Source: a virus
Taxonomy: Duplodnaviria > Caudoviricetes
Strand: one strand, 5' to 3'
IMG/VR virus record: IMGVR_UViG_3300019288_000050
Location: 3,150 to 67,149 of that record
Length of the DNA: 64,000 nucleotides
Made by a program: the position numbers and the translations under genes. The notes beneath the pieces were generated by a model. It was not told where the DNA came from, did not search any database, and worked only from the letters and a program-made list of their open reading frames with translations. Shown here piece by piece: positions 1 to 56,720 of the stretch. Positions within the stretch are counted from its first letter, which is position 1; the number at the start of each line of letters is the position of its first letter.

Positions 1-1203
1 GTTCAGGTAATACATATGACGCGTCTTGTTGGGTACGCACAAGCCTGTGACCTCCGATTTGACTACCTGTGTCATAGGCTCGTCTGTGAATACCTGTCTA
101 AGCAGTGTGCGTCCACCGTCGTAGAGGGCTACACGCGCTCCGGGTGTTTCCATATAGAAAGGCTTTCCACACTGAACGTCACCTATAATGCCGTCTGGCA
201 CATACACAAGCACATCGTCCTCAAACGAGGGGATTTCCTGAATTTCAATCTTTCGTGTGGTCGGATTGTATTTTTCATTAAACTCCTTGTTGTCGATTAC
301 TGTGATTGTCGCACCAATAGCGTCTTCGATGAATGCCTTGAGCGCGGTGTCTGAGATAGTTTTGCCGAAAGCGAGTCGCTGTGCAGCGTCTGATATATCA
401 GGTCGTGTCGAAATGACGTAGGCATTGCGAAAGTAGTCAAGCTTCGCAATGGTGCGCCAAGTCTTCTTAGAGCACTCCCAATGACCGGGGCCTGCGAAGT
501 CAACCTGTTCTGCGTTGTCTTTTACATCCTGCATGACCTCGATAGGGATTATGGTCTTGCCTACTGCGGTGTTCTGCGTCACAGTTCCGTCAGCCGCACG
601 TTTGTACCATTTGCTGTCCTTGATATTCTTTGTAGGAATACCGAAGTCAATCTCAAACGAGATTCCGAGCGGGTTGTTTTTCTTGTCGATGACAAGTTTA
701 CCCTTGTTGGAGACAATACGGTTACGCTGATTGCGGAAAGTGTTGTAGTTACCGCCAAGCAAATCGTCAACGCCGTTGAAAAGCAGCTGCATGACGATAT
801 TTTCCATTTCGGGAGTGGTTCGTCCAAGTTCTTTTGCGAGCAACGCCTTTTCGCGGATGATTTTGCGGTTGAGGACAATTTCGTGCTTGAAAATAGGCAG
901 GCCGCCAGTTTTCAGCGAGAATCCGTCAGTTGATTTGGTCGCACCGTCCGAATCCTCGTCGGTATAGGTCGCGATTGTGTACGGACGGATTGTAGCCTCC
1001 ACCTGCTCGAATGTCGGGTTGATAGGAATATTGGGGTTAAGCGCGAAGCCCATCTGTGCAAAAGTCGCTTCCGCATTGTATTTCTCCGCGAAAGAGTCCT
1101 CCACAAAGAGGTCGAAAGCGGAGCGGTCTCCACTATCCACATACCCCAACGAAGCAAGCCCTTTGGCTACAATGTCGTAGTATTCTTTACCTCGTGTGTA
1201 CAT
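1..1203 (-). CDS. Major capsid protein (partial; ORF runs off the left edge)
   Basis: Reading begins at ATG 1203 (MYTRGKEYYDIVAKGL...) and ends ...EVTGLCVPNKTRHMYYLN at position 1 with no stop seen. It is absent from the ORF track, which fits a stop outside the window. About 400 aa and downstream of scaffold and decoration genes. Confidence 0.72.
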   Translation of the reverse strand, partial: MYTRGKEYYDIVAKGLASLGYVDSGDRSAFDLFVEDSFAEKYNAEATFAQMGFALNPNIPINPTFEQVEATIRPYTIATYTDEDSDGATKSTDGFSLKTGGLPIFKHEIVLNRKIIREKALLAKELGRTTPEMENIVMQLLFNGVDDLLGGNYNTFRNQRNRIVSNKGKLVIDKKNNPLGISFEIDFGIPTKNIKDSKWYKRAADGTVTQNTAVGKTIIPIEVMQDVKDNAEQVDFAGPGHWECSKKTWRTIAKLDYFRNAYVISTRPDISDAAQRLAFGKTISDTALKAFIEDAIGATITVIDNKEFNEKYNPTTRKIEIQEIPSFEDDVLVYVPDGIIGDVQCGKPFYMETPGARVALYDGGRTLLRQVFTDEPMTQVVKSEVTGLCVPNKTRHMYYLN

Positions 1204-1227
1204 TGTTTGTCTGTTTTTAATTGTTGA

Positions 1228-1662
1228 TTATGCTCCTGTTCCGCCGGAAGCGGTGTATTCTCTGCCCTCGCGCATGAATGAAATCATGGGGAGGTTTGCT
1301 TCCACGGAGGGTGGGATGCCGTCGGCTCCGGCTCGGTCTGCGTAGATTTTGCCGGAGGTTACAATTGCGCCGGAAGCGAGAATAGGATTGGAGGGTATGC
1401 AGATGTCGTTGAAGATAAGTCCGTTTACCTTTGCGAGCTTGTCTGCCGCAGCGTCAGCCTTGACTATCTCGATGGTGTTTGCCTGCTGGTCGAAAATCGC
1501 CATAGAGCCTGCGGGAATCACATCGCCCGGTTGATACAGCGAAACATCGAGGTTCCCGCCGAAATGCTCAACGCGATAGGTGCGCACCCAAACGACAAGA
1601 TTTCCGCCGATTTCGGCAGAGTGGCCTCCGATGGTGTTGGATGTTCCGTTCTGATAAGCCAT
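1228..1662 (-). CDS. Head decoration protein
   Basis: 144 aa beta-rich protein between scaffold and capsid genes; call based on position and size. Confidence 0.5.
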   Translation of the reverse strand: MAYQNGTSNTIGGHSAEIGGNLVVWVRTYRVEHFGGNLDVSLYQPGDVIPAGSMAIFDQQANTIEIVKADAAADKLAKVNGLIFNDICIPSNPILASGAIVTSGKIYADRAGADGIPPSVEANLPMISFMREGREYTASGGTGA

Positions 1663-1682
1663 GTTTGTTTGGATTTTGATTG

Positions 1683-2318
1683 TTACTGTTTCTTAGGCAG
1701 TCGCCCGGCTCGTCGCTGTTGCTCTTTGAAAGCCTCGCGGCGGTCTGCCATCTCTTTTTCCGCCTCCTTGCTTGCGCCCTGCCTGCCGGAGCTTCCGTAA
1801 GGTGCTGCCCCATCGCCGTGATAGCGTTTGAGCAGCCTTTCATACTCCTTTTTGGCTTTGGCGGTAACATCTTCGGCGGTGTCGTTATCCCCGATTTGCA
1901 CAGCTTTCACAGCGTCCTCCCAAATCGCTTCATTCGCGACTTTCAGCGATTTGCCCTTTGCGGTCACTTCGGAGCGGAGGTTATTTGCGGTTGCGTTCTT
2001 CGCACTCTCTGCAAGCTTGCCTTCAAGCTGTTCAACACGCTTCAAAAGGTCGGGGTCTCCGCCCTTCGGCTGCGTTTCGGTTGTAGAGGGTTGAGGCTTA
2101 AAGGTTCTCTTGAAGTCCTCAATCCCGGCGGCTACATCTGTACGATACTGTCCTGTGAGCGATTTTAGGAACTTGGTGTGTTTCTCCCAATAAGCCTCGT
2201 CAGGCTCTGTTCCCTCCGCAGGGAGATTATCGCTGATGTAGCTGTCAAGTGTTCTCTGAGAAAGGGGTGTCTCCCCAAGTTTCTCTGTGAGAGTGGATAA
2301 AAGTGTCTCTTTTTCCAT
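1683..2318 (-). CDS. Capsid scaffolding protein
   Basis: 211 aa charged, helical/coiled-coil protein upstream of decoration and capsid genes. Confidence 0.6.
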   Translation of the reverse strand: MEKETLLSTLTEKLGETPLSQRTLDSYISDNLPAEGTEPDEAYWEKHTKFLKSLTGQYRTDVAAGIEDFKRTFKPQPSTTETQPKGGDPDLLKRVEQLEGKLAESAKNATANNLRSEVTAKGKSLKVANEAIWEDAVKAVQIGDNDTAEDVTAKAKKEYERLLKRYHGDGAAPYGSSGRQGASKEAEKEMADRREAFKEQQRRAGRLPKKQ

Positions 2319-2337: not shown

Positions 2338-2395
2338 ATAAAAAAGAGCCTCAAATCGGAGCATTGCTGCTCGTCATTGAAGCTCTTTGGCTTTT
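2338..2395 (-). terminator. Conserved late-operon leader-terminator, copy 1
   Basis: Minus strand AAAAGCC AAAGAGCTTCAA..[GAGCA GCAA TGCTC]..TTGAGGCTCTTT TTTATTT; 12-bp stem plus T-tract about 20 nt before the scaffold ATG. Confidence 0.8.
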
Positions 2396-2419
2396 CTCCT
2401 TGCGGAGTTATGTAATTTG

Positions 2420-2493
2420 TGGATTGGGTAAGACTTGAACTTACGCCCCACGGATTAAAAATCCGTTGCTCTAACCTTCTGAGCTACCAATCC
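2420..2493 (-). tRNA. tRNA-Lys(UUU)
   Basis: Acceptor GGATTGG/CCAATCC, D arm AGCTCAGAAGGTTAGAGC, anticodon arm ACGGA-TTTTTAA-TCCGT, T arm GTAAG-TTCAAGT-CTTAC. Confidence 0.92.
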
Positions 2494-2498
2494 AATTG

Positions 2499-2571
2499 TG
2501 GCGCAGGGCGGACTCGAACCGCCGACCTCTTGGTTATGAGCCAAGTGAGCTACCAACTGCTCTACCGCGCT
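2499..2571 (-). tRNA. tRNA-Met(CAU), initiator-like
   Basis: Anticodon arm CTTGG-CTCATAA-CCAAG, T arm GGCGG-TTCGAGT-CCGCC, A1xC72 mismatch, A11-U24 pair. Confidence 0.9.
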
Positions 2572-2582
2572 ATTAACCTAAA

Positions 2583-2771
2583 TCAATCTTCCTTATCTAT
2601 GGCTGCTACCTTTATGTATTTCTTGCATCGGCGGCACTTGTGGCGGAATAAACCCTTTGTGTGCAGACTTTCTATTTCAAAAAGTTTCTGTCCGCAACAA
2701 GGGCATACCGCAAGCCTGTTGCGGTCGCTTCCGTCTGTCTGGTCAGTGTCTTTCTTTGCAATTATGTTCAT
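2583..2771 (-). CDS. Mu Com-like C4 zinc-finger protein
   Basis: 62 aa; CPCCGQKLFEI...RHKCRRCKKYIKV fits the Com-like pattern CxxCxKL...KCxRC. Confidence 0.6.
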   Translation of the reverse strand: MNIIAKKDTDQTDGSDRNRLAVCPCCGQKLFEIESLHTKGLFRHKCRRCKKYIKVAAIDKED

Positions 2772-2789: not shown

Positions 2790-2797
2790 CAAAATTA
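2790..2797 (-). promoter_or_regulatory. Bacteroidetes -7 promoter (leftward head operon)
   Basis: TAATTTTG on the minus strand matches TAnnTTTG, upstream of the Com-like gene. Confidence 0.65.
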
Positions 2798-2862: not shown

Positions 2863-2870
2863 TAAATTTG
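2863..2870 (+). promoter_or_regulatory. Bacteroidetes -7 promoter (terminase operon)
   Basis: TAAATTTG followed by CA, about 75 nt before the TerL ATG. Confidence 0.65.
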
Positions 2871-2888
2871 CACTTAGATAACCACATT

Positions 2889-2944
2889 AGAGCTTTCATC
2901 AAGCCGGATTTTCGCTTCACAGCGGACTTCCGGCTTTTCTTTTT
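2889..2944 (+). terminator. Leader-terminator variant before TerL
   Basis: AGAGCTT, then AAGCCGGA..[CGCT TCAC AGCG]..TCCGGCTT TTCTTTTT directly abutting ATG 2945. Confidence 0.7.
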
Positions 2945-5686
2945 ATGAGAAAAGACACAGACATAATGACATTTCTTGACGGGCGCAAAGTTGTGTCCTA
3001 TGATGCCATTGTGTCTGTGAGGGAAGCGATAGACAGCAAGAAGTCTAATGACAAGGCTATACAGGCGGGAGGACAGGAAAATATACTCTCCTCTGATGCC
3101 GATATTGTGATTGGCGGCGGCTGTCGAGGCGGCGGCAAGGGAGAGCCGTACTCTGCTCCGATAGTCACTCCTTTCGGGTTGCGCAAGATGGGCGACCTAA
3201 AGCTCGGTAACATCATCACCTCTATTGACGGAGGTATGCAGAGAGTGATTAAAATCCATGAACTTGGGGTGACCGATGTTTTCCGGCTGAATTTTTCAGA
3301 TGGCACGCACGTGGACTGCACTGCTGACCATTTGTGGAAAATCAAGAAAACCAACGTCTCGCATAAACGCAGAAAATTGAACGGCACAGGGCAAGACGCG
3401 GATTGGGAGTTGTGGACTATGGAGATGATTATGTCCTACCTCGACCGCCAGAGCAACGGAGAGTTTAAGACAAAACAGCCGTCGCGACTCTTAGTGCCTC
3501 TTTGTGAACCTGTAAAATTCACTCGTTCTTTTGCGGGGTGGTATAAACCGCAATCCGACCCTTATATTATCGGGGCGATGCTCGGCGACGGCTGTATTAC
3601 AGATAAGGCCATGAAAGAGGCTTCAGATAGTGCCGGATTATTTTCCTCAACAGATGTCGAGTTGATTGAAAGTTTTATAAAGGCAGGCATATCATGCTCC
3701 AAAAGACGCAAATCAATGGATAATTGTTGCGACTATCAATTGAAAAGCGAAATACTGCGCAAGGATATATTTGGGTTGAAACTGAATGGTTGCGACTCCT
3801 ATACAAAGTTTATCCCAAATATCTATAAATACGCCCCGTTAGATACACGATGGGCGTTGGTTCAAGGCTTGATGGACACTGACGGTACTGTTGATAAGCG
3901 AGGTCACTGCTCATACTCAACCATAAGCCCGAATCTTGCTGAGGATATGGCGTTTGTGCTTCGTTCACTTGGTGCTTATGTCACCATTTCAAAGAACAAG
4001 GCTGGCTATAAGAAAAATGGCACATATATTGAGTGCGCTGATGTCTACGACCTATATATAAAAATAAAGGATAGTGACAGGCTTTTCCGCCTTAAACGCA
4101 AGAAAGAGCGCAGTAAGGATTATAATGGAGGTGTTTCCACTCCAACAAAACGCATAGTTAGTTACGAGTATGTCGGCAAAGATAAATGCAGATGTATCAG
4201 CGTGAGTCACCCATCTGCGTTGTATCTTACCAATGATTTCACCGTAACGCACAACTCATGGGTATTGCTTAATAGTGTACTCTATGACATTTACAACCCT
4301 AACTTCCGCTCTGTGATTCTCCGAGCCGGTACGGATGACCTTTCAGACCTTGTTGACGTGTCTTTCGATATTTTCCGTGATTTCGGAGAATACAACAAGT
4401 CGAAAGATGACATGACTTGGAATTACAAAAACGGCGGATGGCTCAAATTCTCATTCCATGCCGGAACGATGGAGAGCTTTCGCACACGCTTCCAAGGTAA
4501 GCAGTTTGCCTATATCGGTGTCGATGAGGTGACGCACATGGCATACGAGAAATTCAAGTATCTCATTACCTGTAACCGTAATGCCTTCGGAATCCGCAAC
4601 CGCTTCATAGGCACCTGTAACCCCGACCCGGATTCGTGGGTTGCCAAATTCATAGACTGGTGGATTGGTGAGGACGGACTGCCTATCCGTGAGCGAGATG
4701 GCAAAGTGCGCTATTGCTTCATGGACGGCGACACTCCTGACACTATCTATTGGGGCGATTCCCGCGAGGAAGTGTATGCGCAGTGTAAGGATATTATTGA
4801 CTCTTATTGGAAGCCGGAATATGAGCGTTACGGCACACCGCAGGAACTTTTCATCAAGTCTGTTGCGTTTGTGGAAGCCAAGCTCTCGGACAATGTAGCC
4901 CTTATGTCCTCTGACCCGACATACCTTGCAAACCTTGTCAATCAGTCCGACGAACAACGCGCCCGAGATCTTGACGGCAACTGGAAATTCAAGAGTGCCG
5001 GGGATGATATGATTAAGCTCGCCCACATGGATGCTTTTTACAGAAACACCATGCAGACAGGAGACAATCAGCTCCGGGCGACATGTGACGTTGCCGCAGA
5101 TGGTGGCGACAACCTTGTGCTTGTGAAATGGATTGGCAATCACATTGACGATATTTTCGTGTGCCGCATCGGAGTTGTCAATGCCGCCATGTCTGTGAAG
5201 GAGAAACTGCGATACTGGCAGGTGCGTGAGGAGAATTTCGCCTATGACCTACCGGGACTCGGACAGACATTCAAGGATATTTTCACCAAGGCGATTCCAT
5301 TTATCCCCAAACAGGCGGTTGACCCAAAACTGAAATTCATCTATGGCGACACCAAGAGCCAATGTGCATACGAGTTTGCCGATGGACTGATTAACGGCGC
5401 ATACTCCATAAATCCCAATTTGCTCCAGCGCAAGTATTCCGGCAATGGATATGAAAACGTGCCGCTGGAGCAGATTCTCAATTTAGAGCGCAAGGCGATA
5501 AGGCAGGACACAAGCCAATCAGACCGCTCATGGCAGATAATCAAGAAAAAAGACATGAAGCGATTCACACGACATTCGCCTGACTTTATCGAGGCAATAA
5601 TAATTCGCAGAATCTTCGACATAAAAGGCAAAAAGCATACAAAGCCGCGCTTAATGAAATATGTAAACCCGAACCGATATAGATAA
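2945..5686 (+). CDS. terL: Terminase large subunit, intein-containing
   Basis: Walker A GCRGGGK|S is restored after intein removal; Walker B YIGVDE, GTCNP motif and C-terminal nuclease CDVAADGGD are present. Confidence 0.93.
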   Translation: MRKDTDIMTFLDGRKVVSYDAIVSVREAIDSKKSNDKAIQAGGQENILSSDADIVIGGGCRGGGKGEPYSAPIVTPFGLRKMGDLKLGNIITSIDGGMQRVIKIHELGVTDVFRLNFSDGTHVDCTADHLWKIKKTNVSHKRRKLNGTGQDADWELWTMEMIMSYLDRQSNGEFKTKQPSRLLVPLCEPVKFTRSFAGWYKPQSDPYIIGAMLGDGCITDKAMKEASDSAGLFSSTDVELIESFIKAGISCSKRRKSMDNCCDYQLKSEILRKDIFGLKLNGCDSYTKFIPNIYKYAPLDTRWALVQGLMDTDGTVDKRGHCSYSTISPNLAEDMAFVLRSLGAYVTISKNKAGYKKNGTYIECADVYDLYIKIKDSDRLFRLKRKKERSKDYNGGVSTPTKRIVSYEYVGKDKCRCISVSHPSALYLTNDFTVTHNSWVLLNSVLYDIYNPNFRSVILRAGTDDLSDLVDVSFDIFRDFGEYNKSKDDMTWNYKNGGWLKFSFHAGTMESFRTRFQGKQFAYIGVDEVTHMAYEKFKYLITCNRNAFGIRNRFIGTCNPDPDSWVAKFIDWWIGEDGLPIRERDGKVRYCFMDGDTPDTIYWGDSREEVYAQCKDIIDSYWKPEYERYGTPQELFIKSVAFVEAKLSDNVALMSSDPTYLANLVNQSDEQRARDLDGNWKFKSAGDDMIKLAHMDAFYRNTMQTGDNQLRATCDVAADGGDNLVLVKWIGNHIDDIFVCRIGVVNAAMSVKEKLRYWQVREENFAYDLPGLGQTFKDIFTKAIPFIPKQAVDPKLKFIYGDTKSQCAYEFADGLINGAYSINPNLLQRKYSGNGYENVPLEQILNLERKAIRQDTSQSDRSWQIIKKKDMKRFTRHSPDFIEAIIIRRIFDIKGKKHTKPRLMKYVNPNRYR
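3140..4255 (+). mobile_element. Class-3 intein (372 aa) with LAGLIDADG homing endonuclease
   Basis: Starts GEPYSAPIVTPFG, block B CTADHLW, endonuclease motifs IIGAMLGDGC and LVQGLMDTDG, block F KCRCISV, ends THN|S. Confidence 0.92.
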
Positions 5687-7257
5687 TGAAAACGAGAGAC
5701 ATCAAGACACGCCGACCGTGGAGACTGATACGCCCGGAAGGTTACTACCGCCACGGAACTTTCAACTCGGAAAACGAGCCGCCGATGCCCGCCGACTCCA
5801 TAAAGTCAGACATAATGACACAGGCTGATATGCTTCGGCAGTATTATCCGTCGGGACATATCATAAATGACCCTACGGCATATCCTGACATATACCGCGA
5901 GCAGCAAGAGCCTGTTTACGACGAGCAGGGCAATGATACTGGCAAGACAATCCGCAGGGTGTATAAGGAGTGTGTGCCTCGCTTCGCTTTCGCTTTTCAA
6001 CAGATTATCGCCCTTAAACAGACGATACACCTTGTCGGCAATGATATTCAGTTTGAGATGAATACTGCCAATCCTACGGAGGCGCAACGTGGCACTTATG
6101 ACAAGTTCCGTGAGGGATGGCTTGAAAAGGATTCGGAGGTGTCTTTTTACGAGTGTGTGAAATCAGAGAAAATCACCGCCGACTGCGCTTGTGTGGGTTT
6201 CCTTGAAAATGGTGTTTTCGGGTGGCAGACCTATTCATATAAGACCGGCTCGACGCTCTATCCGCACTTTGACAACCGTGGACGGCTCAAACTGTTTGCC
6301 CGGTCATTCTACGACTATGACGAAAACGGAGAAATTGTTGTTGAGTGGTTGGAAATTTGGGATGACACATATCTTACACGCCTTAAAAAGACAGGCGAAA
6401 GGTATCAGAATGTGTATGAGAAGATATTAGGCTCTCTCGGCGCATCAAGCTATACAGTACAATCTCGCAAGCGGCATGGATTCCCGTTTGTCCCTGTGGC
6501 TTATAAACGGAATGAAGATGGCCCGTGCTGGCTCCCATCGCAGGATAGCTGCGACTCCTACGATATGTCGTTTTCGCAGATGGCGCAGAACAATCAAGCT
6601 TTTGGCGTGCCAACCATGATATTTCAGGGAGAGGGCGAGAACTTCGACTTTCAGCATGACCTCAACGGCACAATCCGCACCATCTCTATGGGTAAAGAGG
6701 ATAAGGTTTCCACCCTGCAAGCGGAATCGGCATCCGATAGCTATATGAAGCAGCTCGACACGCTCTATAAAATGATTTATGAGCAATCATTTGCCGTTAT
6801 TCCGCCTGAACTGCGAAGCGGTGATTTGCCGGGTGTGGCAATCAAACTCCTTTACTCTCCCGCAGTCGAAAAAGCGATGAGCGATGCACCCGAATGGCAG
6901 CCGTTTCTCAATGACATGGTTAAAATCTTCTCTTACGGCTATGGCATCGAAGTAGAGATGACTTCCGATTTCGCAACCTTGCCACTTAAATATTGGATTA
7001 AGCCTTATGTGCATATCAACGAAAGTGCGGTAATCAATGACCTCGCAACCGGTGTTAATGCTGGTTTTATATCTAAACAGACCGCCTCGGAACGTGCGCC
7101 GGAATACACGTCTGTCGGCGAATGGGAGAGAATTACAAAGGAAATGAAAGACCAGCAACAGTCTGATTTGCTTTTTCAGATAAAAAACAAACAAACCGCT
7201 ACAAACAATCAGTCCCAACAGAAAAATCAGAAAGTAACTAATGCGACAACCAAGTGA
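5686..7257 (+). CDS. Portal protein
   Basis: 523 aa, directly after TerL; size and position fit an SPP1-like portal. Confidence 0.8.
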   Translation: MKTRDIKTRRPWRLIRPEGYYRHGTFNSENEPPMPADSIKSDIMTQADMLRQYYPSGHIINDPTAYPDIYREQQEPVYDEQGNDTGKTIRRVYKECVPRFAFAFQQIIALKQTIHLVGNDIQFEMNTANPTEAQRGTYDKFREGWLEKDSEVSFYECVKSEKITADCACVGFLENGVFGWQTYSYKTGSTLYPHFDNRGRLKLFARSFYDYDENGEIVVEWLEIWDDTYLTRLKKTGERYQNVYEKILGSLGASSYTVQSRKRHGFPFVPVAYKRNEDGPCWLPSQDSCDSYDMSFSQMAQNNQAFGVPTMIFQGEGENFDFQHDLNGTIRTISMGKEDKVSTLQAESASDSYMKQLDTLYKMIYEQSFAVIPPELRSGDLPGVAIKLLYSPAVEKAMSDAPEWQPFLNDMVKIFSYGYGIEVEMTSDFATLPLKYWIKPYVHINESAVINDLATGVNAGFISKQTASERAPEYTSVGEWERITKEMKDQQQSDLLFQIKNKQTATNNQSQQKNQKVTNATTK

Positions 7258-8002: not shown

Positions 8003-8105
8003 TATGCTCGGCTACTCCCTCATTCGCACAAAGAAACTTATGGCTATTTACGAGAAAATAGCTATATTTGCACTTGATAAGATAAGACATCAAAATAAAT
8101 TCAAT

Positions 8106-8459
8106 ATGACAATATCGGGAACTATCTCCGTTGTTCAACCCGAGCAATCAGGTACGAGCAAGAGTGGCAAGGTATGGCGCAAACGTGAATATGTATGTGT
8201 TTACGACAACTCCAACGCGAATTATCCAAAATCGGTTGTCTTTCAGGTTATGAATGACAACATCGACAAACTCAACATTCAGCAGGGTGTCGAATATGAC
8301 CTTGAACTCGATTTCGAGGCGAGAGAATGGAATGGCCGCTATTTCCTGCAAGCGTCTTGTTGGAAAGCGACTGCAAAGACTCAACCCGCACCTCAGCAGC
8401 CCGTCTATACGCAGCCGGCACCACCGACAGACGATTTGGGTAACGACTTGCCATTCTGA
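8106..8459 (+). CDS. DUF3127-like ssDNA-binding (OB-fold) protein
   Basis: SGTSKSGKVWRKREYV...AREWNGRYF with acidic tail DDLGNDLPF; own promoter TATATTTG at 8063-8070. Confidence 0.75.
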   Translation: MTISGTISVVQPEQSGTSKSGKVWRKREYVCVYDNSNANYPKSVVFQVMNDNIDKLNIQQGVEYDLELDFEAREWNGRYFLQASCWKATAKTQPAPQQPVYTQPAPPTDDLGNDLPF

Positions 8460-14107: not shown

Positions 14108-14950
14108 ATGACAGAGGCATTACAGAAAAAGGTTGACTTCGCTATCAAGTTGCTCCGCTCGATACCGCAGGACAATGGGCCGATTGAGGTCTCATATTCC
14201 GGCGGTAAGGACTCTGACGTGATACTGGAGCTTGCGAAGATGGCAGGTATTCCGTATCGGGCTATCTACAAGAATACTACTTGCGATCCGCCAGGCACAA
14301 TAAAGCATTGCAAAGAAAATGGCGTTGAGGTGTTCGCTCCGACAATCAACTTCTTCGACTTGGTGAAGAAGGCCGGGATGCCAACTCGGTTTCGCCGTAT
14401 ATGCTGTTCTTATCTAAAAGAGTATAAAGTTCTCGACCGTGCAATTCAAGGCATACGCAGACACAAAAGCGTCAAAAGAAAAAAGCGATATAAAGAGCCG
14501 GAAGTGTGCCGTAGTTATCCGAAAGGGCAAAAGGCACGAATATATCTGCCTATACTTGAATGGACTGACGAAGATGTAGCACAGTTCATTGCTGAGCGCG
14601 GTATTAAATGCCATCCGCTCTACTATGACGAGCAAGGTAATTTCCACGTTGAGCGCAGATTGGGCTGCATAGGCTGTCCGCTTAGGAGCGATATTGGCAA
14701 ATCCGACTTTGTGAAATACCCGAAGTTTCTGAAAAGGCTAATTGCGTCTACTCAGATTTTCATTGACACGCACCCAGCTACCAAAACGGCAAAAGATTAT
14801 GGCAACGCATACAACCGAGTCTTTCGAGCCTTATTTTGCAACTCAACAGAACAATACAAATCGTTGACAACAGGCGGCATGTTCCCCGAAACCGCCATTG
14901 ACACCAAGAAATTTTTAGAGGATTACTTCAAAATAGACCTTACTATATGA
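14108..14950 (+). CDS. PAPS reductase family protein
   Basis: SYSGGKDS PP-loop, GIRRHKS, PILEWT, RLGCIGCP. Confidence 0.88.
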   Translation: MTEALQKKVDFAIKLLRSIPQDNGPIEVSYSGGKDSDVILELAKMAGIPYRAIYKNTTCDPPGTIKHCKENGVEVFAPTINFFDLVKKAGMPTRFRRICCSYLKEYKVLDRAIQGIRRHKSVKRKKRYKEPEVCRSYPKGQKARIYLPILEWTDEDVAQFIAERGIKCHPLYYDEQGNFHVERRLGCIGCPLRSDIGKSDFVKYPKFLKRLIASTQIFIDTHPATKTAKDYGNAYNRVFRALFCNSTEQYKSLTTGGMFPETAIDTKKFLEDYFKIDLTI

Positions 14951-16001: not shown

Positions 16002-16868
16002 ATGATTTACGGATATTTAAGAGTCAGTTCAGACGAGCAGGATGTCAACTCCCAAAAGCAGGGTGTTGAACAGTTCGCTAAAGATAAGGGCTGGAGTATT
16101 GACAAATACATTACAGACGAGGGCGTGAGCGGCGGCAAAGACCCCGACAAACGTAACCTTGGACCGCTCCTAAAACTTGTCAATAAGGAAGATGTTATCA
16201 TCTGTTCCGAGATAAGCCGCCTTGGTCGCGACCTTTACATGGTGATGGATATACTTCATTTCTGCATGGAGCGAGGGTGTATCATTCACACGGTCAAAGA
16301 CCGCTTTACTCTTGGCGACGATATTCAGAGTAAGGTTCTTGCGTTTGCTTTTGGATTGTCAGCAGAGATAGAGCGTCAGATGATACGCCAACGCACGAAA
16401 GAGGGCTTACGGCTCAGAGTAAAGCAGGGTATATTATTGGGTAGACCTCCAATGACTCAACTCTCTGAGCCTATTACCGACCTATCCGAGAAGAAAAATC
16501 AGGTGATAGAGCAATTCAATTGGGGTGTACCAGAACGCAGACTCGCTCTGAATTTTGGAGTTGACCGCAATACAATAGCACGATGGCTACACCGATGGGG
16601 CGTTAAACACTCCAAATATATAGAGAAACTTGACAAAGGTCAGAATGAGAAGCCGACATCATATAAAGATGGAAATTTTGAGGTTGTAGAGAATATTGAC
16701 AAGGAGAAGCTCCGTCAACTGATAGAGTGTGATTTGACTATCCCTCAGATTGCCGAGCAGTTTGCCGAATACTCCTACGACCAGATATACGATACAATTT
16801 ACTGCGATAAAAAGCTTAATCCTTTGTATCGCAAGCATGGACAACTTAAAATCAAGAAGACAATATGA
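16002..16868 (+). CDS. Mpi-like serine recombinase/DNA invertase with extended C-terminal HTH region
   Basis: YGYLRVSS catalytic Ser, SEISRLGR, LGDDIQSKVLAFAFGLSAEIER. Confidence 0.88.
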   Translation: MIYGYLRVSSDEQDVNSQKQGVEQFAKDKGWSIDKYITDEGVSGGKDPDKRNLGPLLKLVNKEDVIICSEISRLGRDLYMVMDILHFCMERGCIIHTVKDRFTLGDDIQSKVLAFAFGLSAEIERQMIRQRTKEGLRLRVKQGILLGRPPMTQLSEPITDLSEKKNQVIEQFNWGVPERRLALNFGVDRNTIARWLHRWGVKHSKYIEKLDKGQNEKPTSYKDGNFEVVENIDKEKLRQLIECDLTIPQIAEQFAEYSYDQIYDTIYCDKKLNPLYRKHGQLKIKKTI

Positions 16869-17098
16869 AACACCTTACAACCATCCTCGCCGCCGTCCTC
16901 TGCGCCGTGTGCCTGAGCGGATGCGAGGGACAAAAGACACAAGAGCAGATTGATACTTATATGGAGTCGCATATAACCGAGTTCAATTATAAAGGGCATA
17001 AGTTTCTACTCTACAAACAAATGTATGCGAAAGGCGGCGTAGGCGGCATCACCCACGACCCCGACTGCCCCTGCCATAAGGAAGGAGGTGAGGAATGA
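16865..17098 (+). CDS. Small lipoprotein
   Basis: Signal peptide with lipobox LSGC. Confidence 0.6.
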   Translation: MKHLTTILAAVLCAVCLSGCEGQKTQEQIDTYMESHITEFNYKGHKFLLYKQMYAKGGVGGITHDPDCPCHKEGGEE

Positions 17099-25278: not shown

Positions 25279-25410
25279 CCGTAGCGATTGGCAGGGTTAC
25301 TTCTTTGCTAAAGACGGTGTCCTCGGTTCGAGTCCGAGTCCGCTCAATCTTCGGGTTGACGGATAGCTCAGTTGGTAGAGCACGAAAAACACCTTGCCTC
25401 ATTTTCTCGG
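25279..25410 (+). ncRNA. YrlA-type Y RNA 2 (permuted tRNA mimic)
   Basis: Stem GGCAGGGT/ACCTTGCC, GGTTACTTC, T arm CTCGG-TTCGAGT-CCGAG, acceptor-like stem closed by TTCG, D arm TAGCTCAGTTGGTAGAGC. Confidence 0.85.
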
Positions 25411-25420
25411 AAATCCTAAG

Positions 25421-25452
25421 AGGGTTAGCCATTGCGGTTGACCCTTTTTTTG
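25421..25452 (+). terminator. Intrinsic terminator between Y RNAs and TROVE gene
   Basis: AGGGTTAGCC-ATTGC-GGTTGACCCT followed by a T-tract. Confidence 0.75.
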
Positions 25453-25469
25453 TTTTAATACACACAGAT

Positions 25470-26960: not shown

Positions 26961-27023
26961 ATCACTCCACTATTGCTATTTTATGTAAAATGAACTAACT
27001 TTGCAATAACATAATATTTTGGC

Positions 27024-27077
27024 AAAGCCACAAGAGCTTCATGACCCCGACAAGGGTTGTGAGGCTCTTTTTGTTTT
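27024..27077 (+). terminator. Conserved late-operon leader-terminator, copy 2
   Basis: AAAGCC AC AAGAGCTTCAT GACCCC GACAA GGGTT GTGAGGCTCTT TTTGTTTT; promoter TAACTTTG 26996-27003. Confidence 0.8.
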
Positions 27078-27088
27078 ACCCGACCGAT

Positions 27089-27565
27089 ATGGCAGTAGAA
27101 TACACCTTTTTGATGCAGAAAACCACGGACGGCAGTGCGGTGAAATCCTCGCTGTCGGATTTTGGGTTTGCCGTGCGTGATATTCCGTGGCCGGATGAGG
27201 AAACGGAAGATGTGGCTACAAGGACGTGGCCGGGGAAGCATGGCGAGGACGCATACATACCTCCAAGCGGTCTGAAACTGCAAGCCTATGATGTTGAGGT
27301 GGAGTTCTGTTACAAAGGCGATGTGGGTACAGCCGTAGACGCTTACGAGGCTTTGCGAGATTATCTGATTGGCGCAAACGGTGACGGGGCGGAGTTGCGT
27401 GTCTATGACCCTTATTGGAGGCGTGGGCGACAAGGATTGCATGTCAAGAAGATTGGCGACTTCGACCCTCACCGCTCGAATGTGGACGAGGTGCTGCCTC
27501 TTAAAGTGACATTTCGAGTAACTGACCCAAAAACTAAAATAACACTTGTGTATGTGGGAGATTAA
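27089..27565 (+). CDS. Tail protein (distal-tail-like)
   Basis: Start MAVEYTFLMQK after the leader; precedes the large tail protein; VTFRVTDP C-terminus. Confidence 0.6.
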   Translation: MAVEYTFLMQKTTDGSAVKSSLSDFGFAVRDIPWPDEETEDVATRTWPGKHGEDAYIPPSGLKLQAYDVEVEFCYKGDVGTAVDAYEALRDYLIGANGDGAELRVYDPYWRRGRQGLHVKKIGDFDPHRSNVDEVLPLKVTFRVTDPKTKITLVYVGD

Positions 27566-30500
27566 GGGGAAAGACAATCAATTAAAGGCTACCATCAATT
27601 CGCTTGAATACAACGGCGAGTGGATGGGCGAAAGCTATGTGACCGTCACTGTCGAGTCGCCCGCGCCTGTCAACTTCGAGATAGGCGATTACATCATCTA
27701 CCGTGACGAGCGGTTTGAGATAAACTACAACCCCGGCAAAATCAAGTCGGCTCCCCGATATGAAAAGGGGGATGCGTTCAAGTACGAGAACATCAAGTTC
27801 AACTCGCTTGCAGACGAGCTGACACGGTGCGACTTTCTTGACATAGTGCTTAACGACAATCAGCTTCACTTCACGGGATTGCCGAAGTTCAGCTTCTATG
27901 GGGGCGTGAAAGACCTTGCCAACCGTATGCAAGCCAACCTTGACCGCACCTATGGAAAAGGCTCATGGAGCGTTGTGGTGTCGCCCGAATTTCAAAGCAC
28001 CAAGGAGCTGAATGTGCAGGTTGACAATATTAAGGTTCAAGGAGCATTAGAGATACTTGTCAACCAATTTGAGACCTACTACACCATATCGGGGCGCACA
28101 ATCACAATCGGTGCGGCGGGCATTCCGGCAGGGCATCTGTTCAAGTATGGCAAGGGCAACGGACTCTACGAGATTGAGCAGAATGCCGAAGCAGACCAAG
28201 CCATTGTAACGAGAGTACGTGCCTACGGCTCTACCCGGAACCTGCCACACCGATACTATAACTCCCTTTCGGGCGCAGACGGTCAGAAACTCATACCCGA
28301 CAACATGGCGGTGCAGAACCTCATGTTGCCGGAGTTTCCATATACAACCCAAGACCCCTATATCGACAGCCCGAACATCGCCAAGCTCGGAATCCGAGAG
28401 GGGACGGTATTCTTTGACGGCAGTGGCGAGCTTGAAGAAATCTATCCCTCAATCGAGGGCATGACTGCGGAGCAACTGAAAGCCGCAGGAGTACCTTGTA
28501 ATTCTACGGGCGCACTTGACGAGATTGTGAGTGCGGAGCAGATGACCGACAACGGCGTTGGTGAAATCAACGAGGGTGAGACACAAACCACTGCCAAGCC
28601 TCCGACATTCAAGGTCACACTCAAAGACCTCGGCTTTGATATAAACGACCACAAAACGACTGAAACGGCTACAATATCATTCAAGACGGGTATGCTTGGC
28701 GGTCGTGACTTCGAGATTGTCGGCTGCAAGAAGATAGAATCGGGCGGCAAGGTCACGGGCTACGAGCTTGAACTGAATCGTGTGTATGACGATGGCATAA
28801 AGCTGTGGTTCCCATACTCGGCATACAACGCCAAAGCCGGCGACAAATTTGTGCTTCTCTACATCAAAATGCCGGAGGTGTATATCAAGGCTGCGGCTCA
28901 GAGGCTCAAAGAGGCTGCAACGGAATGGCTGTCGAAGAATGACTATTCCCGCTCTATTTATGCTCCGAAAGTCGATGAGATTTTTATGGCACGTCAGCAT
29001 GACCTCGCAATGGCTTCGGGCGGCAAAATCAAGAGTCTGCACGACACTCTCAAAGAGGGTATGCTTCTGCTGTTCGAGGACGAGGATTTGAACATTGACG
29101 CTTCCATCTTCATTGACCGCCTTACAATTAAGGAGGAGGGGACAGTGCCGACATACGAGGTCGTACTGAAAGAGGAAAAGACCGTAGGCCGTCTCGACAA
29201 GATGCAGAATCAGATTGATTCGCTTGCGGCAGGGAAAGGGCAGGGTGGCGGAGGCTACACCGCAGCGCAGATACGCTCGATGATTGAGGCGTATGGTGAT
29301 ACGCGGTTTCTGTCTAAACTCAAAGACGATAGAAGCCAAGGGCAGATAGCGTCGGACAAGGCATTCGAGGTGGGCGATTTTCTTGCGGGGGTGTCGGGCG
29401 CGAAAATCGGTAAGGATGCCGAGACCGGGCAGACGTTTGGCGAGATGGATAGGCTGTTTGTCCGCGTCAAGGCTTATTTTGATACTCTCACGATTATAAA
29501 CGCGGAATCTCTCGCCGGAGAACAGCGCATCGCTCCCGGCGGAGGTGTGAAGTGCACATCTGTCGAGGAACTTGACGATGCTTACCGATGCTACTTCCTC
29601 TCCGAACAGGACGGCGAGAAAACCGAAACGAAAATCATAGCGGGTGACCAAGCGATAGCGCAGATGTTCAACGCCAAGACCGGGACTTCCAACAAGGTAA
29701 GCAACCACCGCTACTGGAGACTCGTCACTGCGGTGAGCAATGACGCATATGCAGACAACTCCGGCAACCGTTACGGCTATATCGACCTCTCAAAGACCGA
29801 CTGCGAGAAAGGCAGCGACATACCTCAGGCAGGTGACACCATCGTACAGTTTGGCAACCGCACAGACCGCACGCGTCAGTCGGCGATGGTGTTCAGCACC
29901 GTGGATGCAGATGCGCCGTCCATCAAACTGTTTGCCGGCATAGACTCCTACACCATTGCGGACAAGGATATAATCTCATACGGCTACGACCCTGTAAAAG
30001 GCAACGCATATTTCAACTGTTATGGCGACACTTACATCGGGGACCGCGACGGGACTACTTTTATAAAATATGACCGTGCCACGAAGACGCTCGATGTTAA
30101 AGCGAGGATCTCCGTCACGTCCACAATCGGCGGTACCAACATAAACGATTTTGTAAACAACGCTGCTCAGTCGGCCGCCGACAAGGCAAAGGCGGAGCTG
30201 CAAGCGAATATCGACATCCTTCAGAATCAGGTTGACGGTGTTATCGAGAGCTTCAACGGGTTCGGGGCGCCCACGCTGACGAACTACCCTGCGAACGAAT
30301 GGACCGCCGACGCAGAGCGCAGTCGGCACGACCGCGACATATACACGGACATCACGCCTTACGTGGACGACGCGACGACGCCTACGAGCGGCCAGTCGTG
30401 GAAGTGGTACTACAACTCGCCAACCGACTACGGCTGGGTGAAGATAGCGGACTCGGACGCAGTGAAAGCGCTGCAGCTTGCCACGATGAGCGTGCGCGAC

Positions 30501-33500
30501 ACCGACGTGCTGTACATATCGCACGCTTCGCCGCTGCAGCAGGACGCGCCGGCGCTGCCGGCTGTCAGTCCGGACGGCGTCATCACCGACTCCAAAGGGT
30601 GGCAGACAAAGGCGCCGGAGTGGCAGGACGGCCGCTATATCTGGCAGACCACCTATGTGCGCCGTGGCGACGGCTCGGCGTCGTTCTCGGACCCCACGTG
30701 CATACAGGGCGCCGACGGGCGTCCCGCCCGTCGTATATACCTGCGTGGGACGCAGATGAACCATACGGGCGCACCCCAGCTCAAGGTCGACGGGGCGTAT
30801 ATATACAACTCGGCATCGGGCCGCGGTGTGAGGCTTGTCACCCTCGACCGTCAGACGCTGGCAAAGGTAGATGATACCACCTACGACACCTACAACTCCC
30901 CGGCCAACCGCGCCAGCCTCGCAGCCAGGCTCGAATCGCTTGACGATTCGGTGTTCGTGACGCTGACGTCGTGGGACGCGATAGGTATGGACGCGGCCCT
31001 CAACGCGGCCCTCAACAGGTTCGGCGGTATGTTCAGCGACGTGTTCGGGGGCGACCGTCGCGCCCTCGCCTTCATCGGCTACAAGGGGCTCGGCCAGGGC
31101 TACGCGCAGTGTGTAATGGACAAGTCCGCCGGAACGGCGGCATCGGCCTATGCCGAGGTGTCGGTCTACGTGGCCGACGGCATGTTCACTACGTCGAAGA
31201 CCGCCGTGGGCATCGACCGCATCACCGAGCAGTACTACCTGTCGACATCGCGCACGCAGCTCCAGGGCGGTTCGTGGAGCGACACGCGGCAGCCGTGGGT
31301 TGCGGGGCGCTTCTACTGGACGCGCACGAAAATCACCTACACCGACGGCTCCGTGGCCTACAAGGGGGAGATATGCGCCACCGGCGAGGCGGGCGCGGAC
31401 GCGCCGAACCTGCTGCAGCGCTTCTCGGCGACGGGCGGTGCTTACGCGTCGGAATGGCATCCGTCGTACCTCGACGGCGACGTGTGGATGCAGACGTCCG
31501 CGGACGGCGGGGCCACATGGAGCGCGCGCATGCCCGTGGGACGCGGCGGCTACAGCGCCAACCTGCTCGAAGGCACGTCGGACGAGTGGCATGAGTTCGC
31601 ACTGGGCATGTACGCTTTCATATACGCGCACATCCCGCTTTCCGACCTCGGGCTGGAAGCCGGCGACATGTTCACCTTTTCGGTGGATTACCGTACGGGT
31701 CCTTCCGGCAAAGGCCTGCGCGTGGGCGTCGAGGCCTACAACAGCGAGGCCGACAGGGTTCTGGTGGCCCGCGGCAACACCGTGCGCGACGGCGAGGGGC
31801 GCGCTTGGTGCTCGGGTACGGTCCCGTCCGGGTATGCCGAGCTGCGTCTGCGCCTTGAAAACGCCGACGCGGCCATCAACACCATGAGCACCGAGGAATA
31901 CCGCGGGCTGAAGCTGGAGAAGGGCAACAACCCGAACCCCGTGTGGACTCCCGCCGCCGGGGAGATGGTCGGCAGGGACGGGCAGTGGCAGAAGTTCCAG
32001 TGGGCCAAGGGCACCGACGCCACAAAAGAGCCGACCGGCGGATGGAGCGACACCCCCGTGTCCGCGCTCCCTGGCGAGTACGTGTGGATGCGCAGCGGCA
32101 CCGTGGTGCCCCCGGCCGCCGAACCCGCGAAGTGGGAGCGTGCGGTGAGACTGACGGGCGACACCGGAGCCGCCGGCGGCGACGTGTACCGCCTCGACCT
32201 GGACAACGAGCGCGCCGCCGTGGCGTGCGACGCCGCAGGCAACGTGACGGGCCCTTACCCGTCGGCCGTGGCTTCCGTCTACAAGGGTTCCGTGAAGCTC
32301 GCCGACGGGGTGGCGTTCAGCGTGGCGGGGCAGACGGGCATATCCGCGTCCGTGTCCGCGTCGGGAGTCCTGTCGCTGTCGGCCATGACGTCCGACACGG
32401 CCGAGGTGGTGTTGCAGGCCGTGGCGGACGGCGTCACGCTCCAGAGCCGCATGAACCTTTACAAGGTGAGGCCCGGCAGCAGCTACACCGAGAACCTCGT
32501 CCTCAAATCCGGCGAGGAGGTGTCGTCCGCGGACTACGGGTTCAGGGTGTACGAAGTCAGCGGGGAGCTCGTGGAGGGCGAGACCTACACGTGGACGATA
32601 TGGGGGACTCCCGGCGCCGGCCGTTGTTTCCGCATATACCCCACGGACTGGAACGGGCGCATAGGCGACCCGGCGCAGCTGTCCGAGGGCGTGTACTCGA
32701 TGACGGCCAAGTGGAAGCGCAACGCCGCAGCCCGCAAGGACGCCTTCATGGTGCTGGCCGCGCCGCACGACGCCACCACGGTGTCCACGATACACAGGAT
32801 AAAGGTCGAACGTGGCGCCAACACGTCGCCCGTGTGGAGCCCCGCGCCGTCGGAGATGACGGGCGAGGACGCCGTGACCTACGACCTCCAGCCGAGCGCG
32901 GGCGTGATAAAGCGCGGCATGACGGGCGAGCCGGACGTGCGGGAGGTCTCGTGCGGCGTCTACAAGAGCGTAGGTGCCTCCCGCAGCCTCACCGGCGAGA
33001 AGACCCTGCGCGTATGGCGCATAGGCGAGGACGCTGCCGAGTCTACCATAGCGCACACGGGCGGGCAGTGCGCCCCGGTGGCCGTGACGGCCAGGACCGG
33101 GCAGGTGGTGTTCTCGCTCTACGACAGCGACACGCTGTTCGACGAAAGCACCCTGCTTGACCGCGAGCGCGTGCCTGTGGTGTCCGACGCCTCCGACCTC
33201 GAAGTCGGCGGCACGAACATGCTGCCCGGGACGAAAGGGTGGGCAGGGTGGATAAAGCACGGCTACGCGCTGGCCGGAGGGACGTACAACGGCCTCGGGG
33301 TGGCGCACCTCGCATACCCCGCAGGCGCCGCCGCAGGCACCGCCTACGACCTTAAGATGACGGGCCTCGTCCTCGAGCCGGACACCGTGTACACGCTTTC
33401 CGTGTGGGCGTACGGCACGGGCAAGTTCATATCCTATGTGTGGCCGGACGTCGGCGGGCGGACGTATTCCGTCAACGGCGTGCCGTCTGAGGCCACAGGC

Positions 33501-35195: not shown

Positions 35196-35303
35196 CGGCA
35201 CAAAAAAAGCGACCCTCAGAACGGGGATACTGCCTGTAGACACACAACCCGTCCGGATGTCGCAGTGCAAAGATAGCAATAAAAAACGTAACGGCAAAAC
35301 ATT

Positions 35304-36617
35304 ATGGCGCAGATGACAGACAAAGAATACGTGAGCGTGGCCGGCGTGGCGTCGGCGCTCGGGGTGGCGGCCGACACGCGTGCCCGCCAGGTGGGCTACC
35401 TGTGCGGCAACGCCCACGGACTCATAAACATGTGGGCGCGGGGCAAGCCCGTGCGCTACCCGTCCACCATGCCGCTTTCAGACGGGCAGAGAAGCAAGGC
35501 CGACCAGGGCCTCGTGCCGCCCGACGGCGGACAGGCAGGCACGCCCGTGTCCGGGGAGTGGATGGAAAAGGTGTGGCGGTACGCCCCTCCGCGCGGCGGC
35601 GCCGACGAGCCTTACAGGCTTTCGGACTTCCTGCATTACGACCCGGACGCGCGCCCTCCGGTGTCCACTCCCGGCACGCAGTACATAAGCCCGCTCGACA
35701 GCGGCTCCGCGCTTCGCTTCAGCTTCGGCGCCTCCCTGTCGTCTATTGCCGGCACCGGCGACCTGACGCTGGGAGACTTCGATTACCTCAAAAACTATTA
35801 CCCGTGCGTGGCGCTCAACTTCGGCGACGGCTTCGTGCGCTGCATCACTGGCACGCGCAGGTTCGGCGAGGCCGGGCCGTCCCTTGTCAACCTGCCCGTC
35901 AGCGCCCTGCTCGGGTTCGCCGCCGGGGAGTTCGAATACTTCATGTGCGGCTGCTCCGTGTGCCAGACGGCTCTCGGCGTCCCGCCGTCGGCCGCCTATG
36001 TGGTGCTGCCCTCGGAACGTCCGCTCAGAGACCGCATCGTCGTGTCTTCCGGACGTGTGCTGGACGTGTATTTCGAGCGCGTGACGCCCGGCATCCTCGG
36101 CAGCGCCCTTATGTTCCGCGGGGAGCCCGTCTCCGACTACAACCCCGCAGGAGGCATCGTGCCCGACCCCGGCACGGGCCCCGGCGGCCCCATGCCCGCT
36201 TACCGCTACCTGAACGTCGGCGGCACGTACGGCCGCTCCACGGCGTCGTTCAGCATGCGCGTCACCAACCCGAACATGAAGGCTGTCAGCATCCCCGCGT
36301 CGGCGCTGAAAGCGTCCGTGTCCGGCAACCTCGCCGGCAAGACCACCATCCCGGCCCCCGTGCCCGCCCTGAAGCGTTTCAAGGGCGAAGGCAGCGTGAT
36401 GGAGTCCGCCGGAAGCATATCCCTGGGTCCGGGCGAGTCCGCCCGTTACGCAGTGTCGTGGCCCGAGAACTGCTGCATCATGGACGAGCGCAACCACACC
36501 GTGCAGCTCGGCGACACCAGGAGATTCAACGCCGGCTTCAGCCTCCTTTACAACAGCGGCTCCACCACCGTGCGGCTCGGCAGCGTGGGCATCAACATAA
36601 GCAACTACGACGTATGA
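35304..36617 (+). CDS. Tail fibre-associated protein
   Basis: 437 aa; VSVAGVASALG...INMWARGKPVRY N-terminus typical of Bacteroidales phage fibre-associated proteins. Confidence 0.6.
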   Translation: MAQMTDKEYVSVAGVASALGVAADTRARQVGYLCGNAHGLINMWARGKPVRYPSTMPLSDGQRSKADQGLVPPDGGQAGTPVSGEWMEKVWRYAPPRGGADEPYRLSDFLHYDPDARPPVSTPGTQYISPLDSGSALRFSFGASLSSIAGTGDLTLGDFDYLKNYYPCVALNFGDGFVRCITGTRRFGEAGPSLVNLPVSALLGFAAGEFEYFMCGCSVCQTALGVPPSAAYVVLPSERPLRDRIVVSSGRVLDVYFERVTPGILGSALMFRGEPVSDYNPAGGIVPDPGTGPGGPMPAYRYLNVGGTYGRSTASFSMRVTNPNMKAVSIPASALKASVSGNLAGKTTIPAPVPALKRFKGEGSVMESAGSISLGPGESARYAVSWPENCCIMDERNHTVQLGDTRRFNAGFSLLYNSGSTTVRLGSVGINISNYDV

Positions 36618-56595: not shown

Positions 56596-56666
56596 TCTAA
56601 AGATTTCCCATTTCCCACAAAATAACTACCTTTGCAGTAGTTTATAAACCATAGGGCATATCGCCT

Positions 56667-56720
56667 AAAGCCAAAAGAGCTTATTTCAGACTTCGGTCTG
56701 CGATAGGCTCTTTTAATTTT
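56667..56720 (+). terminator. Conserved late-operon leader-terminator, copy 3
   Basis: AAAGCC AAAAGAGCTTAT..[CAGAC TTCG GTCTG]..ATAGGCTCTTTT AATTTT; promoter TACCTTTG 56627-34. Confidence 0.82.

Follow-up and report, generated by a model that had tools for sequence, protein, structure and literature searches.

A Com-like zinc-ribbon protein probably switches on the virion late genes of a Bacteroidales gut phage. In the window, i.e. the whole 64,000-nt stretch of DNA analysed, three copies of one leader RNA element precede dispersed virion operons, and a gene for a 62-aa protein that is a remote homolog of Com from phage Mu lies next to one of them. The Com relative encoded adjacent to the element and the match of the element to the published Com site together point to the zinc-ribbon protein as the late-gene switch, a role not described for the Com family. 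The architecture of the leaders fits a programme in which transcription would terminate by default and read through once a phage factor is bound, both steps being predicted from sequence.

Three leader elements in the window

A scan of the window with the pattern AAGAGCTT-N15-45-AGGCTCTT finds exactly three copies of AAGAGCTT-N22-28-AGGCTCTT followed by a U-tract, with motif cores at 2344-2387 (-), 27032-27069 (+) and 56675-56712 (+). In 100 dinucleotide shuffles of the window, used as control, the motif is found 0 times; the three elements with a shared consensus reported in the first-pass annotation are thus real. The whole 67,149-bp (67-kb) IMG/VR provirus record that holds the window contains no fourth exact copy. 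AAAGCC and 1-2 further nt stand in front of each copy, 4-6 U follow it, and start codons lie 12-25 nt downstream. The elements and the genes that they precede are as follows.

2338-2395 (-): leader element copy 1, before scaffold/capsid genes
2387-2344 (-): terminator stem of copy 1, with U-tract at 2343-2338 and the downstream ATG at 2318
1-2318 (-): operon behind copy 1, predicted to be gated; scaffold-like ORF (1683-2318), 144-aa ORF (1228-1662) and major head protein
1-1203 (-): major head protein (PHROGs), continuing beyond the window
26996-27003 (+): TAacTTTG promoter-like box, 20 nt upstream of copy 2
27024-27077 (+): leader element copy 2, before a 158-aa ORF (27089-27565) and a 2549-aa tail protein
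27025-27029, 27032-27039 and 27062-27069 (+): flank AAGCC, 5' arm and 3' arm of copy 2
27546-35195 (+): tail protein, 2549 aa (PHROGs)
56627-56634 (+): TAccTTTG promoter-like box, 32 nt upstream of copy 3
56667-56720 (+): leader element copy 3, before the tape measure gene (56728-63228)
56668-56672, 56675-56682 and 56705-56712 (+): flank AAGCC, 5' arm and 3' arm of copy 3
56728-63228 (+): tape measure (PHROGs)

The three copies fold as hairpins of 16-18 bp (-23 to -30 kcal/mol, z -3.3 to -6.7). On the transcribed strand, each is a stable G+C-containing hairpin directly 5' of a U-tract, the arrangement that characterizes intrinsic terminators. The U-tract measures 5-11 nt across 57 unique elements; in copy 3, it is short and interrupted (4 U, then AAUUUUU). 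Two copies had been described as sitting behind TAnnTTTG boxes, and these are present at 26996-27003 and 56627-56634, while copy 1 is preceded by two tRNA genes and not by a promoter-like box. In Rfam 15, only tRNAs reach the gathering threshold in the window, and the elements score nothing at E<=5.

A single metatranscriptome contig of 636 nt (1778-2413), the only RNA evidence, spans the U-tract of copy 1 and stops beside the 3' end of a tRNA. The metatranscriptomes are available as assembled contigs that carry neither ends, strand nor levels, with possible carry-over of DNA, and stretches that they leave uncovered are uninformative. A contig from run X15 joins 16925 to 17047, omitting 121 nt next to an invertase-like gene (16002-16868); the gap is either a strain indel or an excised segment.

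Other features of the window merit mention. An ordinary AAGAGGG...CCCUUUUUUU terminator at 25406-25458 (+), before an ORF starting at 25471, has no AAGCC flank and is a weak match (18.7 bits) of the covariance model R1 described below. At 30000-36000, within and after the 2549-aa tail protein, GC content is 0.64-0.68 versus 0.41-0.53 elsewhere; the region may be receptor-binding and either foreign in composition or rich in repeats. Among the early/middle genes are those for a DUF3127 protein and a protein with a PAPS-reductase domain (8004-8459 and 14108-14950). Near their counterparts, the annotation of the related Dulem virus lists radical-SAM-type enzymes, and the neighbourhood may be a DNA-modification module.

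Conservation of the element in other phages

The only phage relative in GenBank is Dulem virus 40 (73 kb, from lemur faeces, with ∼79% identity in patches), which has the element at 3/3 homologous sites with different inner hairpins. A 21-base pattern search of IMG/VR yields at least 112 loci with the exact motif, and about 20 distinct inner hairpins occur among the matches listed. In an alignment of 20 representatives, compensatory changes are seen at all 8 inner pairs of the terminator hairpin (P1), in agreement with the earlier view that selection acts on structure and a few specific bases. The outer stem of diverged copies covaries as well (AAGAGUC/GACUCUU, AUAGAGCUG/CAGCUCUAU and AAGAGCC/GGCUCUU). 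A U-G wobble is kept in the three copies of the window, as stated earlier, but relatives have U-A (6 unique canonical elements) or C-G (others) at this position.

A covariance model of the element, R1, finds exactly three copies in the window, three in Dulem virus 40 and 1-3 in 13/14 other phage records. Every R1 copy is located 9-40 nt upstream of a scaffold-like, tail-proximal, tape-measure or TerL-like gene, and some relatives have a copy upstream of the lysis cassette. The proposal that one conserved leader-terminator stands before each of the dispersed virion operons therefore holds beyond the window, the same genes being preceded in relatives. A TAnnTTTG box lies 11-33 nt before 14 of the 15 unique non-scaffold copies; 31/32 scaffold copies are without such a box and are located behind an ORF or tRNA genes. 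These relatives were recovered via the DNA pattern and a zinc-ribbon profile rather than by single-protein queries: as a query of IMG/VR, the tail-proximal ORF returns no relatives and the scaffold ORF only two.

The lower stem of the element is shaped like that of ordinary host terminators. A search of 141 Bacteroidaceae genomes gives only eight weak matches, all generic AAAAGAGC...GCUCUUUU terminators without the flank. This indicates that the element is phage-specific, and the possibility of a known host element, raised beforehand, falls away; a known family is likewise missing from Rfam.

A competing mini-hairpin with the features of a Com site

A mini-hairpin of 3-4 bp, termed P0, arises when (A)AGC of the 5' flank base-pairs with GCUU, which is nt 5-8 of the 5' arm of the terminator. 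In copy 1, it reads AAGC-CAAAGA-GCUU.

2393-2390, 2389-2384 and 2383-2380 (-): flank AAGC, loop CAAAGA and shared GCUU of copy 1 P0

P0 is kept in 56/57 unique elements, the exception being element L230, in which it is broken. Flank and arm covary, with AAGC-C found with GCUU or GCUG, AGAGC-C with GCUC, AAGGC-C with GCC and AAGAC-C with GUC; G-U intermediates also exist (AAGGCC with GUC, AAGACC with GUU). The pair types AGC/GCU, GAC/GUC, GGC/GCC and GAGC/GCUC occur in lineages whose inner hairpins differ. At the three inner positions, 170/171 cells are standard pairs, against 0-47% in slid registers, and 2000 shuffles of the flanks among elements never reach the observed pairing. These statistics were computed by script; a MAFFT alignment could not place the variable spacer. 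Four distinct inner hairpins accompany the GGC/GCC state; for two of them, close relatives are canonical, so the A-U to G-C double change arose several times. A different fold, between AAAGCC and the 3' GGCU, had been suggested before; it is intact in 35 of the 57 unique elements and broken in 22, and the covarying helix is AAGC/GCUU.

Because P0 takes nt 5-8 of the arm and leaves nt 1-4 in its loop, P0 and P1 are mutually exclusive. P0 is less stable than P1 by 13-15 kcal/mol (the cost of forcing P0). Thus, the terminator would be the default, and P0 would need a stabilizing factor. The P0 loop, C-N0-2-(A/U)AGA, and the C-G closing pair together make up the motif CC(N)2-4GAG, in which N is 2-3 in 44/56 unique elements and 4 in 12/56. 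CC and (A)GAG are the only invariant bases in the 5' half of the element.

Recognition by Com has been defined by SELEX, EMSA and SHAPE (Nowacka et al., PMC6483171). The Com site has a stem of 3-4 bp whose sequence varies, closed by an invariable C-G pair, and the loop CC(N)2-3GAG, and the natural site, AUGC-CUGCGA-GCAU, adjoins an inhibitory structure of mom mRNA (PMC6483171). P0 was derived from covariation prior to this comparison and has the published features: the C-G pair is invariant, the stem covaries and most elements have CC(N)2-3GAG. Roughly one in a thousand random small hairpins would be expected to have the matching closing pair together with the first loop C and the terminal GA. 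The first-pass statement that the motif belongs to no described family is correct as regards Rfam, but needs qualification, since the conserved bases reproduce the Com-binding hairpin of Mu mom mRNA (PMC6483171).

The window contains no excess of generic Com-box-like hairpins (12 observed versus 11.1 +/- 3.4 expected), which argues that specificity resides in the combination of box and terminator. The string GAGCCTCAGAGC in the TerS leader (11378-89), previously taken for a variant, does not qualify: no terminator accompanies it, and such boxes occur in the window at chance frequency. In the 3' arm of the element, GCUCUUU presumably resembles the NusB/E boxA; a boxA reading was dropped, the U-tract terminator and P0 already accounting for the conservation.

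The zinc-ribbon protein as candidate factor

The candidate trans factor is encoded by the first gene of the unit to which copy 1 belongs; tRNA-Met, tRNA-Lys, copy 1 and the scaffold/capsid genes follow.

2790-2797 (-): TAatTTTG promoter-like box of the zinc-ribbon gene, seen in the sequence and divergent from the TerL promoter
2583-2771 (-): 62-aa C4 zinc-ribbon gene (C-x2-C...C-x2-C), distant relative of Com and candidate trans factor
2419-2571 (-): tRNA-Lys(UUU) and tRNA-Met(CAU), between the zinc-ribbon gene and copy 1

Homologs share the invariant motif CPxCGQK...R..CRRC and have an identical location in every relative examined. Among 80 IMG/VR loci picked by the zinc-ribbon protein alone, 78 have an R1 match downstream on the same strand and the remaining two are truncated; the element is therefore downstream in 78/78 untruncated loci. 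Eight distant homologs from NCBI, ENA and Logan assemblies display the order portal<-TerL<-|->Zn-ribbon->(tRNAs)->element->scaffold->MCP. In genome contigs, the zinc-ribbon profile finds only two MAG loci. In one distant relative (L233:3207-3449), short repeats of GTGAGT and AACT(T/C)A types fill the 240 nt from the zinc-ribbon gene to the element.

Relatedness of the 62-aa protein to Com is remote. The Pfam Com model PF10122 has no match at E<=10 in a six-frame search of the whole record, hmmscan of the protein returns generic zinc ribbons only and a PDB sequence search with the family profile gives only chance zinc-finger matches. Comparison by hhalign of 26 family members with 15 PF10122 Com proteins reaches Prob 90.6% and E 1.3e-6 over 37 columns, with all four Cys aligned; as a single sequence against Mu Com, the probability is 13%. 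One homolog bears the JGI name 'phage FluMu protein Com', and an ESM-atlas neighbour cluster is named 'Mu-like prophage protein Com' (0.94).

A permuted element in the TerL leader

The TerL/portal operon, divergent from the zinc-ribbon gene, has a leader with the same parts in another order.

2863-2870 (+): TAaaTTTG promoter-like box of the TerL/portal operon
2889-2944 (+): permuted element of the TerL leader, with AGA[GCUU] at 2889-2895, loop UCAUC and [AAGC]C at 2901-2905
2901-2908 and 2929-2936 (+): terminator 5' arm AAGCCGGA, which opens with AAGC, and 3' arm UCCGGCUU, followed by a U-rich tract to the ATG at 2945
2945-7257 (+): TerL with intein (2945-5686) and portal (5686-7257), behind the permuted leader and predicted to be gated (PHROGs)

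The duplex and the unpaired AGA and C are those of the canonical element, joined at the other end; the TerL leader is therefore a circular permutation. The arrangement is kept in TerL leaders across the phage family and covaries (GCC/GGC in L228, GCA/UGC in L230). The variant noticed earlier in this leader is thus real and conserved, but its arrangement is permuted. In two relatives (G004 and G005), the TerL-like gene has the canonical element and not the permuted one. The permuted form is the counterpart of the 'open-end' half of the bipartite motif obtained for Com by SELEX. In a diverged relative (L231:3183-3293), the leader has a tandem GAGAGCC-GGA-GAGCC before the terminator and is closer to this bipartite motif than the canonical element. 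The TerL protein itself (913 aa) consists of two TerL-homologous halves split by a Hint/LAGLIDADG-type insertion, i.e. an intein, and a distant homolog (L229) has a 911-aa TerL with a weak LAGLIDADG_3 match.

An orphan element in an unrelated phage

The most abundant exact-motif class among the IMG/VR matches listed, type A, comprises about 50 loci and belongs to a different phage family with a Phage_portal-type (HK97-type) portal. The element is present as a single copy in the leader of a lysis cassette made of a Bro-N or T5orf172 gene, a holin-like gene and an M15 or GH108 endolysin.

Type A orphan element, examples: G002 (L124, L248-L250); L010, L011, L048

The complete 56.9-kb type A record G002 encodes no zinc-ribbon homolog, and none of its small C4 proteins is Com-like. 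Hence, the element can exist without the zinc-ribbon protein. A Com-encoding relative (G006) has a similar copy ahead of its own lysis genes, so that phage families have probably swapped the lysis cassette together with its leader. Contigs differ in sequence downstream of the type A element, indicating a mosaic junction. As the type A cassette would be gated by the same element in a phage devoid of a Com-like gene of its own, it may rely, or eavesdrop, on a Com-like protein made by a co-resident or superinfecting phage. If so, lysis or induction could ride piggy-back on another phage, or the late activator of an invader could set off abortive infection. This whole reading, in which Com-box terminators constitute a 'late signal' common to unrelated gut phages, is quite improbable.

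Proposed mechanism and alternatives

The leader RNA would have two states. By default, P1 (16-18 bp) and the U-tract would form an intrinsic terminator. Host RNA polymerase (RNAP) would start at the TAnnTTTG promoters of the tail, tape-measure and TerL operons and halt at the leader terminator; in the capsid operon, P1 would halt transcripts arriving from the zinc-ribbon/tRNA unit. The 62-aa Com-like protein, whose gene is the promoter-proximal one in the capsid unit, would bind P0 while it emerges. Bound P0 would tie up the lower 8 bp of P1 and split the upper hairpin from the U-tract, so that RNAP would read through. Expression of the capsid operon would thereby be turned on in cis, and that of the tail, tape-measure and TerL/portal operons in trans.

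It is reasonably likely that a Com-like protein locks P0 in this manner and prevents termination at the late-operon leaders. Several observations count against this reading, namely the silence of PF10122, the type A phage without zinc-ribbon gene, the broken P0 of L230 and a P0 of only 3-4 bp. Generic Com boxes at chance level, the short U-tract of copy 3 and a lone RNA contig, possibly derived from DNA, weigh in the same direction.

The leaders could also be ordinary constitutive terminators or insulators, possibly 5' stabilizing hairpins too, that were copied among operons, with a non-switching flank and partial read-through. Host Bacteroidaceae terminators do share the AAAAGAGC...GCUCUUUU shape, another plain terminator of like form is found at 25406-25458 and type A elements occur without the zinc-ribbon gene. 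Such an account is nevertheless unlikely. It leaves the invariant CC and AGAG unexplained, as well as the covariation of flank and arm with several independent double changes, the exclusivity with P1 and the permuted TerL form with its identical duplex and unpaired bases. Moreover, a strong terminator between a promoter and essential virion genes makes little sense without release.

Alternatively, a real switch could be operated by a host protein or another phage protein in place of the zinc-ribbon protein, e.g. a processive antiterminator that modifies RNAP and is loaded at the leader. The long operons (8 kb for tail, 6.5 kb for TMP) would profit from processive antitermination, the orphan element resides in a phage without zinc-ribbon gene and the homology to Com is remote. 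This is distinctly unlikely in view of an RNA motif that equals the experimentally defined Com site at every invariant base, a strict synteny of zinc-ribbon gene and element (78/78) and a profile-profile probability of 90.6% to Com. The scanned part of the proteome also holds no NusG-, Q- or N-like gene.

Initiation in Bacteroidetes depends on unstructured A/U-rich leaders. This general requirement would suit a Com-like protein that binds P0 and acts, as in Mu, on translation of the first gene or on mRNA stability, and start codons are just 9-40 nt behind the hairpin. Such action is the sole function known for Com (PMC6483171). A role of this type is very unlikely here: in all copies, the start codon and the A-rich stretch before it are outside the hairpin, the inhibitory structure is a canonical terminator with a U-tract of 5-11 nt and the scaffold copies are located inside a transcription unit. 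A DNA-level site (operator, cruciform, recombination or packaging site), suggested by the inverted repeat with conserved arms, is scarcely credible, given that orientation always follows the downstream gene with the U-tract on the coding strand, that the spacer varies in length and sequence yet pairs with G-U pairs tolerated, and that the distance to the promoter is variable.

Significance

Antitermination by a Com-like protein would provide a testable switch for the timing of Bacteroidales phage late genes, constituted of one ∼60-aa protein and an RNA of ∼55 nt. Hundreds of phage contigs from gut samples of mouse, pig, lemur and probably human contain the protein/RNA pair, and hosts of phages with the pair include Bacteroides and Paraprevotella. 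If true, the Com family, so far known for activating translation of a single DNA-modification gene, would also include a master antiterminator of virion operons. The known kinds of attenuation would then gain a very small terminator switch that depends on a protein and also exists in circularly permuted form. In practical terms, the pair could serve as a compact inducible terminator/antiterminator for Bacteroides genetics, and the sequence signature could mark late operons in uncultivated gut phages.

Comparison with known systems

Literature searches retrieved no description of Com-controlled late genes or of a late antitermination system in Bacteroides phages. Generic Bacteroidaceae terminators (AAAAGAGC-stem-GCUCUUUU) have the lower stem and the U-tract shape in common with the phage element. 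In contrast, they lack the (A)AGCC flank and P0 pairing, and are single, scattered and unlinked to phage late genes.

In phage lambda N/nut and Q/qut and in HK022 put, late or delayed genes transcribed by host RNAP are likewise gated by terminators and released via a phage-specified leader element. N, Q and put act by modifying RNAP, which then passes distant terminators processively, whereas here the recognition hairpin overlaps the terminator itself, and no N- or Q-like (or NusG-like) gene is found in the scanned part of the proteome. The fixed geometry of lambda Q-type systems is not seen either: a variable stretch of 11-33 nt separates TAnnTTTG box and element, and scaffold copies are not next to a promoter. 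This variable distance makes a Q-type DNA site a poor fit.

The logic is shared with LicT/SacY-RAT and other protein-dependent attenuators, where a weak 5' hairpin overlaps the 5' arm of a terminator and wins only when held by protein. The proteins are unrelated (CAT-PRD versus zinc ribbon), RAT is larger and the operons concerned are sugar-responsive host operons, not a phage late programme.

The closest parallels are Mu Com/mom and the FluMu-type Com-methyltransferase pairs (PMC6483171, PMC3299994), in which, as here, a C4 zinc finger of ∼60 aa is encoded by the first gene of the operon. The binding hairpin of Mu Com adjoins or overlaps an inhibitory RNA structure, just as P0 overlaps the 5' arm of the terminator. 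Binding of Mu Com is thought to shift the RNA to an active fold, and the same switch logic is proposed for the leaders described here. The differences concern the protein, the inhibitory structure and the targets. Compared with Mu Com, the zinc-ribbon protein has a 20-aa N-terminal extension, lacks the Com C-terminal tail and is missed by PF10122; its hosts, Bacteroidales, are from a phylum different from that of the Mu host. The inhibitory structure in Mu is a TIS that sequesters the start codon, whereas here it is a predicted intrinsic terminator with start codons 9-40 nt downstream. Finally, the target of Mu Com is one DNA-modification gene in cis (mom or a methyltransferase gene directly downstream of com), whereas the proposed targets in the present phage are 3-4 dispersed virion operons (scaffold/capsid, tail, TMP and TerL) controlled in trans.
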